Positions 477 to 64,000 of a stretch of DNA of 64,000 bases are shown here, one piece after another. Numbering within the stretch: the stretch's first letter is position 1; each line of letters opens with the position of its first letter. Position numbers and translations under genes: made by a program. This stretch comes from a virus, in IMG/VR virus record IMGVR_UViG_3300020020_000001, positions 1 through 64,000 of that record. The stretch is one strand, 5' to 3'. Under the pieces are notes generated by a model that saw nothing but the letters and a program-made list of their open reading frames with translations, made no database searches and was not told the DNA's origin.

Positions 477-650
477 GAAGTATGTAGGCAATATGGCTAC
501 AAGAGCGTAGTCTGCATACACTACATACTTCTCGGCTCGACGCTACCATGCCTGTGGGGGTGGGTCAGATGAGGGAATGTGGAAATAGAAGCCTGTGAAT
601 GTCTGATAATGTGCGAAAAGGCACCAATATTAGAACGGAGAAGGTGGTGA

Positions 651-1157
651 ATGATGGCTGTTAGACGAGCGCTGCGTGGAGATAACGTAATTTATCGCAA
701 TGCTAAGGGTGAGAGCATGGCGGTAGTTATTAGTGCTGGTCAGGGGCCGGCGCCGAGTGCTCCCGTTGCTGTTGGCTCAGGGACCGGGGGGACGCTGGCC
801 GCTGCGACGTATACGTATAAGAATACGTATGTCAAGGACGGTATTGAGTCTGAGTTGAGTGCAGCGTCAAACTCGTATGTGGCTACCGGAGCGACGAGTA
901 GTGTGGCGTTAACGGTGGCTGTGGTTGCCGGTGCGACTTCGTATAAGGTTTATGGACGGACAGGTGGTTCGTTCTTACTGATGACGACACTGACTGCGCC
1001 GACGGTTCTTTATACTGATACCGCAGCAGATACCCCAGCAGGTGCTGCGCCGGCTGCTAATCAGAACATTACCTTCCGCACTCCGTATGCTGGCCATGCA
1101 CAGTTGACTGGTATTCTACCTGGTCTGACTGCGGGTACCTACCAGCGGATTTACTAA
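651..1157 (+). CDS. Virion decoration-like protein with Ig/FnIII-like domain
   Basis: Thr/Ala/Gly-rich; segment GGTLAAATYTYK...GATSYKVYGRTGG matches the N-terminal domain of the major tail protein at 10597. Confidence 0.55.
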   Translation: MMAVRRALRGDNVIYRNAKGESMAVVISAGQGPAPSAPVAVGSGTGGTLAAATYTYKNTYVKDGIESELSAASNSYVATGATSSVALTVAVVAGATSYKVYGRTGGSFLLMTTLTAPTVLYTDTAADTPAGAAPAANQNITFRTPYAGHAQLTGILPGLTAGTYQRIY

Positions 1158-1166
1158 GGACTTCCT

Positions 1167-1424
1167 GTGGGCATTGATAACAAATACGGTCAGGTTATTG
1201 TGTCTGGTAGCACTATTGCTGAAGATGAGCCGGTGGTTGTCTTCAGAGCGCAGGACAAGATGCTACCGGATTTATTGAAGATATACAAAATACTTTGTAA
1301 AGCCGCAGGAAGTCCGAAAAAGCACTTAGATTTGATTCATGAGTCGGCGGAGCAGATTCGTGCTTGGCAGGCTGAGAACTTCACTCAAGTTCCACAGAGT
1401 GTGAACTACAAACCGGAGGGCTGA
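1167..1424 (+). CDS. Hypothetical phage protein
   Basis: ORF with EDEPVVVFRAQD motif, RBS AAGGA, in operon. Confidence 0.6.
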   Translation: MGIDNKYGQVIVSGSTIAEDEPVVVFRAQDKMLPDLLKIYKILCKAAGSPKKHLDLIHESAEQIRAWQAENFTQVPQSVNYKPEG

Positions 1425-1425
1425 G

Positions 1426-1641
1426 ATGGCTTGGCTCCCACAGGTCAATGGCCACGTGCAGATTATGTACTTAGATGTCAGTCTGAACTGTATTAAGCTG
1501 CACCCGGGGATTATTACCGCAGTAGTTAACCCAACAACACAAACGATAGACGTGCGCGTAGGCCGAAGTGGTCAGACGTTTGCGGCATTGATTCGTCGAT
1601 TCGACCCGGCCGTCAAGGTTTACCCTTGCTATGTCCCATAG
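1426..1641 (+). CDS. Hypothetical protein
   Basis: Tightly packed ORF with GGAGG RBS. Confidence 0.55.
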   Translation: MAWLPQVNGHVQIMYLDVSLNCIKLHPGIITAVVNPTTQTIDVRVGRSGQTFAALIRRFDPAVKVYPCYVP

Positions 1642-1650
1642 GGGGCAAAA

Positions 1651-60287: not shown

Positions 60288-60665
60288 GGGTATTCGTTCA
60301 ATCATCATTCGCGCTGGTCAGAGCGTGATCAAATCGACGAAAGTCAATATGTCCGATATGTCCTCTGCAACTTGCAACTGGCAGGTGCAGAACACGTTAC
60401 TAGTACACTGACTAGTAACATGCACAACATCTGCTAGACGTTCAATGTTAGAGTGATTCGCGTGCTAACTTCCTCTGCTGACATCATTTCAAGTTGCCCA
60501 ATAAACTTGTCACGGAGATGCTCCATGACAAATTCCTTGAGATCTTGAAACGGTACCTCAACAAAGAGGTGACCATCGTCAGCCGGTTCTACCTTATCCT
60601 TTGACACCGTGATAAGGACGTTGCCGGAGAAATCACCATTGAAATGGAATCTTACATTCTTAGTA

Positions 60666-61022
60666 CTAAGAGAGTGCATCTTTGTATTCCTCAACTGTCT
60701 CAGCGAACTTGGTAAATTCTTCTATCAACCATTCTGGTACATCAGCTTCGTCACCATCAAGACCATTGCCAAGGAAAATAACGTTCCCTACAAGGATATC
60801 ACCACGTGGCCAACCAAGTTTATGTGCAAATTTGGTTGCTACTGTGTTAGGACGAAGTGCTTGTATCTTTCCTTCTTCATTACAATAGCCATGCCAGTCA
60901 CTATGTGAGTTTCCACTGCTAAAGACCTCAATGTAACCACCCACAGTAGCCTGTAGCCACTCTAGTGTCACGTCGATATGGAATATTGAGGCCATTTCAG
61001 CTTCAATAACGAGTACCTTCAT
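60666..61022 (-). CDS. DUF3846 protein
   Basis: LQ..VGGYIE, CNEEGK...L.PN..AT, DILVG. Confidence 0.8.
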   Translation of the reverse strand: MKVLVIEAEMASIFHIDVTLEWLQATVGGYIEVFSSGNSHSDWHGYCNEEGKIQALRPNTVATKFAHKLGWPRGDILVGNVIFLGNGLDGDEADVPEWLIEEFTKFAETVEEYKDALS

Positions 61023-62267
61023 TTTTTCTCCATTTGTTAGTTGTGCAACACGACACTCAATCGAGTTGAGTGTCATGCAATACAACTAAGCCGGTGCCTT
61101 TTCTCTGCGTCTGCGCTTTGGTTTTTCTGGTTTTGGGTCACCGTTTACATAAGTTAGAAAATCTGGATGTGCTTCGTAACAGGTTTTGTTCACACATGGT
61201 GTAATGTGACCATATCGTGTCACTAATTCGTAACAGTTTGGTCTATTCCGTCCATCAGGATGACAAGTATTTGGGTGACAGAGTGGTTCCGCTTTGTGAC
61301 CACGACTGTATCCACCGGGCAAATTACCCATTCTGCGTTGACAGTGGGCACAGCCCATCGTTGCGCCATACGTTGTGCCGTTTCCGGCCATTTTGCGGCT
61401 TGGCGACTTGTTGTAGTTCATGTACTCTCTTCCAATTATGGTACTGGAATATATGCAGCGGTAACATCAGTCCAAACTGGTACTGGTATGTTTGATTCAA
61501 AAATCTTGACTGCACGTACTCCACCACCAACACGAGCGACTGCCCGCAAACGATTGAAAGCGCTTACTGCCTCCGCTTCAGGCATTTGTGGTAATTCAGT
61601 TGCTACCCAATCATCAGTTGTAACACTGCCGGCCGGAACGCCAACCGGTCCAGATTCATAGGTAACCTTAAACAGATTAGCCATTCTCCACCTCTGATTC
61701 TTCTAGCTCCTTGCTAGGAGCGTTGAAACCTTTACCGGGAGGACATTCTGGACAAGGAGATCCGTCGTACCAAGGCTTGTACTGTCTGTGTGGGCAAGCC
61801 CAGTCCACCTCTTCTGGTGCGGTACGCAGTTGCCTTATTACTAGAACTGCTACGCCGACTACACCTGCTACTGTCGCAGCCAGTATAGCATAACCGAGCG
61901 GAGTCTTAGGAATCATGTGCGCAAACTCCATCCTGTGGGCAATCACCAATGTCGCAGCGATCACAGTCACAATAACATTCTTCATGGCAGTCATCGAGAA
62001 AGATATCGATACCTACGTCCTGTGGGATTGGTTCAGGTCGAAAGATCTTCATCCCAAATACATTCCACTTCTAATTCGGTCATGTCAAGCAGGATAGCTA
62101 ACCGATGAATTTCGGTTCGCTTTCGAATCTCCATCTCGCGGAAGTACAGGTTTCGTGTTCCCTTGATGTATAATTCTTTCATTTGCTCAACAGTTATCGT
62201 TGCCAATTCTACTCCTTCGATCTTAGTTGTGCAACACGGCTCAGGTGCAAGACCTGAACCATGCAAC

Positions 62268-62999
62268 TCAACTACCAATCGCACGTCGAGTACTATGCTG
62301 CGAGCTAATCCTAGTACCACCGAGGTCAGCACGCTGACCGGCAGAAGTACCAGCACTACGGCCAGCACTACTACTAGCACTGAAACTGGTACGTCTATAG
62401 CTCAACCGTGGAAAGACAGTGCTAACAAGGTTCTTAACGATTTGCGCCTTGTTGACTAGCACCAATTCCATACCACTGCCCTCACTTGCCTTCTTGATAT
62501 CTTCCTTTGCCCGTTGTGAAGCAACCTTGATGCGAATGATTACCGTACTCACAAAGGCAGAAACAAAGGAACCATTGAAGGTTCGACCATGCTCACGCGC
62601 AGGCTTGTAGACCTGCGCATTTGCCAAAGCCGTATCAAGTTGCAAGACGAGAGACATGTAGAGCATAAACACGCGCTCAATGTCATCATCAGTACCAAAC
62701 ACACTAACCTTGTTACCTTCGATCGTTACAGCAAAGCAACCAAAGGCGTGGCAAATCGCTTGTAGAAGTGAGTCTTTCCTATTTGGGTATGTACCAACGA
62801 TCTTAAAGATACGATGCGAAGCGGTCAATGGCCGCTGCTCTTTAGCAGCGAGCATATCCTGCTCAATGCCATGCTTCGTCATCAGATACGTGATCTTGTC
62901 AATGATCGAAGCACGTTCGTCTTCTGTCGTAGCTCTGTCTTCGGCCTTAACCATTAGTTTTTCGATGATTTCAAGCCACTTGTTATTAGGTTCTGTCAT
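62268..62999 (-). CDS. DUF2786 domain protein
   Basis: I.KL..KAE...T..E......A..LM.K.GI N-terminal pattern; G...G..ADLG. Confidence 0.75.
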   Translation of the reverse strand: MTEPNNKWLEIIEKLMVKAEDRATTEDERASIIDKITYLMTKHGIEQDMLAAKEQRPLTASHRIFKIVGTYPNRKDSLLQAICHAFGCFAVTIEGNKVSVFGTDDDIERVFMLYMSLVLQLDTALANAQVYKPAREHGRTFNGSFVSAFVSTVIIRIKVASQRAKEDIKKASEGSGMELVLVNKAQIVKNLVSTVFPRLSYRRTSFSASSSAGRSAGTSAGQRADLGGTRISSQHSTRRAIGS

Positions 63000-63067
63000 T
63001 TTGTATCACCTCTCCATTTTAGTGGTACAGTACCAAGCTAGTACTAGACTAGCATGATACAACGCCG

Positions 63068-63529
63068 CTAAGTGAAGTTTAATACTGCGTATTCACCAAA
63101 GTGTTGTATTGCTTTGTCGTCATATGCTTTGGCTGCAACCATTTCATTTTCAAACAGACCTATATTTATTCTTCTTCCGTCAACTTGTATACGAGCAATC
63201 CACTTTTTACGATCTTTCCGAAAAACAACACCCTTATATTTAGAAGATCGTCCTGATCTCTTTTGTCGATTTGCAGCATTTTGTGATGTTGTTGCCGGTC
63301 GAAGATTAGCTCTTGTGTTATCTAGCCCGTCACCATTTACATGATCTACTTGAGCAAATCCAGTTATTAACGTATGCATCAACTGTTTTCCATATGTTCC
63401 TACACTTCGTCCCGCGTAGAATTTGTTATATCCTTTCTTAGCGTGCCACTTATATTGAACAACCAGGTCGTAGTCTTCGTCATCTACGATGGCTTGCTGT
63501 CCTTGTGTTAGTGGAATAAATCGCATCAC
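63068..63529 (-). CDS. HNH-AP2 domain endonuclease
   Basis: VDHVNGDGLDNTRANLR, SSKYKGV, W.ARI, G.F..E..AA.AYD.A...FGEYA.LN. Confidence 0.9.
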   Translation of the reverse strand: MMRFIPLTQGQQAIVDDEDYDLVVQYKWHAKKGYNKFYAGRSVGTYGKQLMHTLITGFAQVDHVNGDGLDNTRANLRPATTSQNAANRQKRSGRSSKYKGVVFRKDRKKWIARIQVDGRRINIGLFENEMVAAKAYDDKAIQHFGEYAVLNFT

Positions 63530-64000
63530 GGCCTCTTTAGTCAAATTGTACCGCGTCCTGTGGGTTAGCCCACAGGGCACGATACAATGTCACTAAAAGG
63601 CTTTGTATAGTCGATTGGTTAAAATAACCCACTTTGTGGCGTCGTGATGCTTAGTGAGAGCATAAAGATGTTCTTTTAGAAACCTCAACAAGTCGATTTC
63701 CTGAGCATCTGGTGGCATTTCTTCTTTGTCGATCAATTCAATTTCTACAAGGTATTTCATTTACATTCCATGTGTTGGACAGTGTTGCGCACCACAAGTG
63801 ATGACTCCGATTCCAACATCTGCCTCACAGCAAGGTGTGTCACAAGTGCAGATCTCAGTCTCTTGTGGCGGAAGATCAACACATGCCTGACAGATTTCGT
63901 GCTCGCAGTCATCGCATAGCCCATCATCGGCTGCTATATGACCAGTTTTGCTAAGTTTAGCACACGCACAACACAGATTACAGAGAGGGAGTCCCATTCG

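Follow-up and report, generated by a model that had tools for sequence, protein, structure and literature searches.

The stretch of DNA analysed here (the window) comprises the first 64 kb of an 80,170-bp IMG/VR virus record (IMGVR_UViG_3300020020_000001; the complete record is referred to as G000), and our subject is a short word, the octamer CCTGTGGG, that is dispersed along its whole length, together with the phage primase-helicase that may read it. The record carries a 127-bp terminal repeat, which probably arose as an overlap in the assembly of a circular or permuted genome. Structural genes occupy positions 108 to 24887 and run rightward; from 24938 to ~80 kb the genes run leftward and comprise replication and recombination functions, 23 tRNAs, Ro60 and early genes. 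A complete replication/recombination module at 24938-40108 (minus strand) is syntenic with those of Arthrobacter phage Amavida, Curtobacterium phage Yappy and Stenotrophomonas phage Jojan60. Its genes, all on the minus strand, include a resolvase-like gene (24938-25390), a family A DNA polymerase (PolA; 27247-29550), which gave tblastn matches to phage DNA polymerase I genes and is context rather than proposed reader, the primase-helicase (749 aa; 30301-32550), which is the proposed reader, and genes for a DUF669 SSB-like protein (32585-33049), an AAA_24 Sak4-like ATPase (33027-33788), a PDDEXK exonuclease (36737-38029) and an SNF2 helicase (38858-40108).

CCTGTGGG occurs 36 times in the window (25 copies on the plus and 11 on the minus strand), against a mean of 1.5 and a maximum of 7 in dinucleotide-preserving shuffles, and 47 times in the whole genome (30/17), where the reversed control word occurs once. 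An earlier note on this DNA had listed 35 positions for the octamer and judged it far more frequent than chance allows; all 35 proved to be exact copies of the word or its complement, one more was found at 1437-1444 on the minus strand, and the enrichment was borne out. The strict core of the word is the heptamer CTGTGGG, with 63 copies in the window (552 to 63575, 41/22, the 36 octamers included) and 76 in the genome (47/29), 13 of them outside the window; the further heptamers that the note had also reported exist, but there are 27 of them in the window rather than about 20. Third-order Markov expectations for the genome are 1.4 for the octamer (47 observed) and 7.0 for the heptamer (76 observed). 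On the plus strand of the window CTGTGGG starts at 552, 1165, 3019, 3390, 3590, 3826, 5158, 8087, 8867, 10928, 11164, 14635, 17320, 18613, 20237, 20613, 23918, 26311, 26630, 28150, 29467, 31866, 34826, 36143, 36884, 41134, 42958, 44385, 46302, 46571, 51402, 53021, 54162, 54684, 54753, 55023, 56221, 57687, 61933, 62020 and 63558; minus-strand copies, given by the start of CCCACAG, lie at 1437, 3457, 14244, 19415, 22889, 26132, 28922, 29201, 32226, 35018, 37237, 43032, 43182, 44521, 46134, 50677, 52506, 57577, 58243, 59835, 60940 and 63569.

Positions 2-7 of CCTGTGGG (C-T-G-T-G-G) are strict, single variants being found at 0.0-1.6 times expectation, whilst at positions 1 and 8 other bases are tolerated, variants there reaching 2-5 times expectation. 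Around the 76 genomic copies of CTGTGGG, C precedes the word in 47 cases, T follows it in 40 and T stands three bases upstream in 39. The enrichment is not a by-product of coding: a plain synonymous-codon shuffle gives z = 18-21, and it persists under a refined codon- and junction-preserving null that had been set beforehand as the test capable of overturning it. In this null the amino-acid sequence is fixed and each codon is drawn given its amino acid and the previous base; across coding regions CTGTGGG was observed 61 times against 9.0 +/- 2.9 (z = 18), and CCTGTGGG 34 times against 2.4 +/- 1.5. With respect to genes, 32 of the heptamers are sense, 29 antisense and 15 intergenic, so that 61/76 are intragenic, and the 20% that are intergenic match the proportion of non-coding DNA in the genome. 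All three frames are used in both orientations, and the variety of reading frames described in the earlier note was confirmed, the words LWx, xVG, xCG, PTx, PQx and HR all being encoded. Each quarter of the genome has 0.87-1.18 copies per kb, and core, accessory and non-coding DNA are similar in density, with no real excess near gene starts; spacing is Poisson-like (coefficient of variation 0.93) and averages ~1 copy per 1.7 kb on the plus strand and ~1 per 2.8 kb on the minus strand.

The copy said to lie inside tRNA-Val was confirmed (59835-59842, minus strand, in the 3' acceptor/T-arm region of the gene at 59830-59902, also minus), and another lies at the 3' edge of tRNA-Arg(tct) (43182-43188); because of these two copies, the word is seen to be tolerated or recruited even within structural RNA genes. 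The inverted pair that the earlier note had placed at 63557-63576 is likewise present, as CCTGTGGG-TTAG-CCCACAGG, an 8-bp hairpin of two motif copies lying 4-24 nt inside the 5' end of an HNH/AP2 gene (63068-63580, minus strand). A second perfect 8-bp hairpin of two motif copies, with the loop TTATG, lies at genome positions 67174-67194 (L043:3174-3194). Each is placed 4-35 nt downstream of a leftward gene's start codon, the HNH/AP2 endonuclease gene being one of the two, and about 0.3 convergent pairs of this hairpin type are expected by chance. When IMG/VR was scanned for octamers paired as hairpins, the few dense loci among the matches listed were tandem repeats or local clusters, and the whole records were not enriched.

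The genome holds a second over-represented word, ATGTCCG(T/A)TTTG, with 41 copies on both strands, of which 37 crowd together in the early region (72.7-80 kb). Its core ATGTCCG, often extended to ATGTCCGTTTTG, spans genome positions 72757-79914 (L043:8757-15914) and is found in the window only at 6520, 43148 and 60349; it is also the top repeat beside the terminase in close relatives (30-55 copies). Clustered as it is, in contrast to the even spread of CTGTGGG, it resembles a promoter or operator repeat with a local regulatory role and has no relation to the dispersed word.

The word extends beyond this genome. Amongst terminase relatives drawn from IMG/VR, the five complete or large genomes closest to G000 all have CCTGTGGG as their top octamer by enrichment (13-38 copies where about 1 is expected), CCTGTGGT being a co-variant octamer in G001 and G004, and the top octamer of farther members (terminase 52-60% identical) is CCCTGTGG or CCTGTGGA, so that the family-level core is CCTGTGG, with lineage 'dialects' at its ends. 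Across the terminase tree the enrichment is patchy and graded, from 12-fold to none. Conservation of sites at synonymous positions, which the earlier note had called for, is present but weak: at orthologous positions 25-38% of the G000 sites are kept in relatives of ~70% DNA identity, compared with 10-13% of random 7-mers, with 72% of bases identical within the motif and 68% in the flanking DNA. Because most sites change position between relatives, it is site density, and not the individual site, that selection maintains. A phyletic profile of the G000 genes against 11 relatives revealed no accessory gene that tracks the motif. The broader proposal of the earlier note, that selection at the DNA level acts for a dispersed site recognised by a protein, was right, given that the enrichment survives the nulls, is independent of frame and strand and is common to the whole phage clade; the candidates named there for this site are not supported.

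To compare the word with the primase outside this clade, a tblastn search with the G000 primase-helicase was used; it returned 167 cultured-phage records, from which ten were taken with hosts as varied as possible, and three control phages were added. Hexamers were ranked de novo in each phage, the S-TGTG-S family accounting for 4 of about 2080 strand-collapsed hexamers. A member of this family is the most enriched hexamer in 7/10 of the primase phages, and ranks second in an eighth, Desulfofustis phage MD02. Full-length homologues of the primase-helicase are encoded by Curtobacterium phage Yappy (CTGTGC, 97 copies against 39.6 expected), Stenotrophomonas phage Jojan60 (CTGTGC, 89 against 27.9) and Arthrobacter phage Amavida (GTGTGC, 93 against 29.2). 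A primase domain fused to an AAA_25 helicase is found in Pseudomonas phage PMBT14 (GTGTGG, 74 against 21.7), Mycobacterium phage Muddy (GTGTGG, 71 against 24.6), Serratia phage Tlacuache (GTGTGG, 58 against 21.3), Gordonia phage Orla (GTGTGG, 89 against 26.7) and MD02 (CCTGTGG, 23 against 5.6; CCTGTGGA, 14 against 1.4). These eight host genera, Curtobacterium, Arthrobacter, Gordonia, Mycobacterium, Stenotrophomonas, Pseudomonas, Serratia and Desulfofustis, are distributed over Actinomycetota, Gammaproteobacteria and Desulfobacterota. In the controls the best word of the family ranks 605 (Mycobacterium phage L5, with PolA, an exonuclease and another primase), 865 (Bacillus phage BSP19, with a PolA 27-35% identical to that of G000, DUF669, a P-loop ATPase and a Toprim/MCM primase) and 98 (Arthrobacter phage Wollypog, a terminase relative whose primase is of the Toprim/MCM kind and which encodes a RecB-like exonuclease and a RecA-like protein).

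A tree of the primase N-terminal domain resolves three clades that match word type and not host: the AAA_25-fused primases go with GTGTGG or CCTGTGGA, the clade of Yappy, Jojan60, Amavida and Clavibacter phage CN1A with x-GTGC words, and the G000 clade with CCTGTGG. GTG is retained in every sister word, and the preceding T in nearly all of them. The primase domain is the element common to all word-bearing phages; helicase partner, polymerase context and host vary. Two of the controls, BSP19 and Wollypog, which differ in hosts and polymerases and both carry a Toprim/zinc-ribbon plus MCM-type primase-helicase, share a top word of their own, CTGCGG (48 against 10.9 in BSP19, with TCTGCGGA 14 against 1.0; 98 against 50.7 in Wollypog), and other primase families may likewise leave a genomic word.

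The G000 primase-helicase itself is matched by PHROG 10514 ('DNA primase', E 5.9e-103) and, in Pfam, by RepB_primase (residues 122-185) and DUF3987 (residues 424-669, E 2.2e-19), and it is kept in the relatives G001-G007, G010 and G012 at 41-66% identity. Its N-terminal 380 residues (31411-32550, minus strand) were modelled with AlphaFold2 from ten clade sequences (mean pLDDT, the predicted local distance difference test, 79.5), and the model comprises a mixed alpha/beta domain, the catalytic domain of an archaeo-eukaryotic primase (AEP), followed by a helical bundle. Searches of the Protein Data Bank (PDB) by sequence, with the primase and with its profile, gave nothing, and only the fold search returned matches: the top Foldseek match is the primase RepB' (3H20, E 1.6e-10), its catalytic domain 3H25_A aligning with a TM-score (TMt) of 0.72 and a root-mean-square deviation of 3.7 A, and the pRN1 prim-pol structures 3M1M and 9AAM appear further down the list as weak matches. 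The sequence W-A-D110-L-D112, containing the DxD motif, is invariant in 10 clade members. We assign the phage protein as a RepB'/pRN1-like AEP with a helix-bundle domain, fused to a DUF3987 helicase.

Since related words mark phages of unrelated hosts that have the same kind of primase, we infer, with somewhat more confidence than doubt, that the dispersed word represents the initiation sites at which the phage's own RepB'-type primase begins lagging-strand primers. The template would be read single-stranded as 5'-C-C-T-G-T-G-G-G-3', the recognition element being GTG plus the following G(G); the primer would start opposite the T directly 5' of GTG, hence with A as its first base, and would continue over the two C's as pppA-G-G... 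A requirement of 7-8 nt would be satisfied by chance only about 7 times in 80 kb, and selection would therefore have raised the supply to ~1 site per kb. Sites would be needed on both strands and anywhere, also within genes in any frame, and the independence of frame and strand, the uniform Poisson-like spacing and the positional turnover are as such a density requirement predicts. The spacing of CTGTGGG, one copy per 1.7 and 2.8 kb on the two strands, is on the scale of Okazaki fragments. What is expected of the sites of an AEP primase of the pRN1/RepB' type is found here in several respects: copies occur on both strands at this spacing; CCTGTGGG has the layout of start base, GTG and critical 3' base, and its strict positions are exactly these; the identity of the primase is indicated by Pfam, PHROG, fold and DxD motif; and the word co-varies with the primase rather than with host or other genes, with G007, Clostridium phage Clo-PEP-1 and CN1A as exceptions.

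The strand distribution bears on the same question. As the earlier note had remarked, the plus orientation prevails whatever the strand of the gene, modestly so in G000 (47:29, p about 0.05). The GTG-containing word is the commoner on the plus strand (the sense of the structural genes) in 8/8 cultured phages (55-76%), as in G000 (62%), and pooled over 14 genomes the plus:minus counts are 267:158 in rightward genes and 204:162 in leftward genes. The plus excess is a polarity at the level of DNA, as replication would give. This moderate excess would imply that the plus strand is the more often the lagging-strand template, and hence that forks run mostly rightward, from the terminase end.

Several observations weigh against assigning the word to the primase. 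The association is correlative and relies on three control phages, because the primase is co-inherited with a syntenic module (PolA, Cas4-type exonuclease, Sak4-like ATPase and small neighbouring proteins). Within the clade the strength of enrichment varies from 2- to 12-fold, and the complete relative G007, whose primase is 46% identical and in which even the core replication genes are present, has no enrichment at all (3 copies of CCTGTGG where about 6-10 are expected). In Clo-PEP-1 the primase domain is present and a clear word is lacking, and CN1A, with a full-length homologue, has a weaker and different one (CCGTGCG, 54 against 17.7); the primases of these three may need shorter words. 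The RepB_primase match in Pfam scores 25.1 bits, only just over the cut-off of 24.3, and the known start sites of RepB' itself are 40-nt hairpins, not short words (PMC8567376).

The same co-inheritance could mean that the word is the site of another protein of the replication/recombination module, for instance a small DNA-binding protein encoded by the primase gene's neighbour, the Cas4-type exonuclease and SNF2 helicase acting on a phage 'Chi-like' self-marker, or a replisome loader. All word-bearing phages do share PolA, and mostly also the Cas4-type exonuclease and Sak4-like ATPase; small helix-turn-helix or DNA-binding genes adjoin the primase in Yappy and Amavida; and the wordless G007 retains the primase. 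We nevertheless regard such a reader as unlikely, given that BSP19, L5 and Wollypog carry partner proteins of this kind yet no word, that no accessory gene of G000 has a presence pattern matching the motif, that Muddy lacks an annotated Cas4-type exonuclease, and that the fused helicase differs (DUF3987 or AAA_25) whilst the word family is shared, leaving the primase domain as the common element. The protein at 41119-41985 (minus strand), which the earlier note had called ParB-like and offered as a reader, has no Pfam match at E < 0.01 and only PHROG 5931, of unknown function; amongst the relatives its gene is confined to the closest, G001, G002 and G004, and is absent from the motif-rich G003 and G005. 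A ParB-parS system is not supported either, the word being asymmetric and having 76 copies, as opposed to few palindromic parS sites, and the protein at 41119-41985 giving no Pfam match to a ParB domain. A DnaA box was dropped as a candidate: it shares CCACA with the word, but the TTGT/TTAT half is absent from the flanks.

A host Chi or other host 'self' motif, read by RecBCD/AddAB or used in DNA uptake and accumulated by the phage, would equally produce a commonest octamer whose runner-up shares 7 bases and that recurs at ~1 per 1.7 kb, as in phages LLS and P1 (PMC12315714), and the word is G/T-rich like known Chi sequences. The Chi-like function suggested in the earlier note is nonetheless very improbable: phages from three phyla have sister words, whose distribution follows the primase clade; control phages of the same host genera have no word (L5 as against Muddy, Wollypog as against Amavida); orientation is weakly biased (47:29 in G000, 210:154 in the clade, near balance in G001, G002 and G004) where Chi-rich phages reach 20:3 and 32:0; and an exonuclease, a Sak4-like ATPase, an SSB-like protein and a resolvase-like product are encoded by the phage itself. 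No genome-wide excess of the motif was found in 6 metagenome-assembled genomes (MAGs) with relatives, 121 Saccharimonadia and 301 Chloroflexota genomes, the true host of the phage not having been identified; the Chloroflexota set includes the unpublished G179, G286, G314, G368 and G413, and the negative holds without them. One Chloroflexota genome (G303) contains 746 copies of CCTGTGGG, an apparent excess made up of CRISPR-like arrays and repeats at contig ends (at G303:C19:3141-3560 and G303:C25:6118-6265 the octamer recurs every 68-70 bp, as in a CRISPR array) and unrelated to the phage word. A different process at the DNA level, such as sequence-specific modification or nicking at the word, signalling for packaging or ejection, or a drive by mismatch repair of the very-short-patch (VSP) type, is improbable as well. 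Positional turnover at maintained density would also be expected of a drive, and several HNH endonucleases are encoded; but the HNH genes are not common to the clade, neither a methyltransferase nor a Vsr-like protein was seen in the set scanned, one-off neighbours of the word show no marked directional depletion, for which reason a VSP-like drive is not indicated, and the co-variation with primase clade across hosts would be left unexplained.

As to the origin of the phage, soil metagenome runs contain the same sequence as the window, and a comparison of 44001-64000 with reads and contigs of related soil runs gave 631 differences, the two closest runs being identical to the window. No cultured phage matches G000 at the nucleotide level, and its terminase is at most 36% identical to those of actinophages. 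A scan of GTDB genomes for Ro60, made in search of the host, found nothing; one with the terminase profile found relatives on 6 MAG contigs only (two in Saccharibacteria bins, one, L084, in Bacterium UASB270, and three others), which are probably binned phage contigs, and 3 of them contain the motif. The contigs from the Candidatus Saccharibacteria MAGs (L083 and L088) carry both the terminase relative and the motif at a G+C content similar to that of the bin, the rest of those MAGs lacking the motif, and represent either a hint of the host or phage contigs mis-binned by composition. Look-alikes of the G000 lysin lean towards Actinomycetota, a weak host lead.

Returning to priming by the phage's own enzyme, a wider formulation, for which we see about equal grounds for belief and disbelief, is that RepB'-type phage primases have evolved template specificities of 6-8 nt and that their genomes have been sculpted to supply ~1 site per kb. 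Were this true, the recognition word, and from its strand bias the direction of forks, could be read straight from a genome sequence, and primase specificity could be predicted from sequence alone in hundreds of phages, amongst them the therapeutic mycobacteriophage Muddy. It would also place a new constraint on the synonymous sites of phage genes, and would counsel caution against taking every dense, skewed octamer of a phage for host Chi; other primase families may obey the rule too, as CTGCGG in the two phages with Toprim/MCM primases suggests. In the literature searched we found no genome-wide enrichment of AEP-primase sites and no primase whose long specificity forces its own genome to carry its site many-fold over chance, within genes and at the expense of codon choice, and searches for the word itself returned nothing in prokaryotes or phages.

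Stoperators, the 13-bp repressor-bound sites of cluster A mycobacteriophages such as L5, are mostly intergenic and oriented with transcription. The word of G000 resembles them in being an asymmetric short site with many copies dispersed over a phage genome, and the earlier note had accordingly proposed a stoperator-like role; the G000 sites, unlike stoperators, lie mostly within genes, in every frame and in either orientation to transcription, as the preponderance of sites in genes and the near equality of sense and antisense copies given above indicate, and a stoperator or operator array is not supported. In L5 itself the S-TGTG-S words are not enriched. The Chi-rich phages LLS and P1, in which Chi is the commonest octamer (~1 per 1.9 kb) and has 7 overlapping bases in common with the next most frequent one (PMC12315714), offer a closer likeness: G000 shares with LLS, P1 and MD8 a commonest octamer that lies in genes in several frames and whose runner-up shares 7 bases (PMC12315714; PMC3784561). 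Their Chi, however, is a host word read by host RecBCD, strongly oriented (20:3 in LLS, 32:0 in MD8) and clustered near one end, in phages typically without a Rec module, and none of this holds for G000.

Sequence-specific priming is textbook knowledge for T7, pRN1 and RepB'. The gene 4 protein of T7, like the enzyme proposed here, is a primase-helicase that starts Okazaki primers solely at a short, partly cryptic template word, 5'-(G/T)2GTC-3', with sites genome-wide on both strands (PMC12839067); it differs in being a Toprim/zinc-finger (DnaG-type) primase, not an AEP, with a 5-nt word that is frequent by chance, and in the literature we found no report of many-fold genome-wide enrichment of the T7 word. 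RepB' of RSF1010 (ssiA/ssiB; 3H20, 3H25) is the best structural match to the phage primase and the only Pfam primase family matched, with the same two-domain layout, but it acts in leading-strand priming of a plasmid from two 40-nt hairpin sites in oriV and has no helicase fusion (PMC8567376), whereas the phage primase is fused to a helicase. The pRN1 ORF904 primase, like the phage enzyme, joins an AEP catalytic domain, together with a helix-bundle domain, to a helicase (PMC2034472, PMC2965215). It obligatorily requires GTG in a single-stranded template, the base 3' of GTG being critical; its primer starts opposite the base directly 5' of GTG, with ATP accepted first on all templates, and its minimal substrate reads ...CTGTGC (PMC2034472). 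ORF904 is an archaeal plasmid enzyme and needs 3-4 bases, whilst for the phage a requirement of 7-8 bases is proposed, in a genome reshaped to ~1 site per kb. The phage word CC-T-GTG-G-G has the same layout as the pRN1 template signal, and the strict positions of the two coincide.

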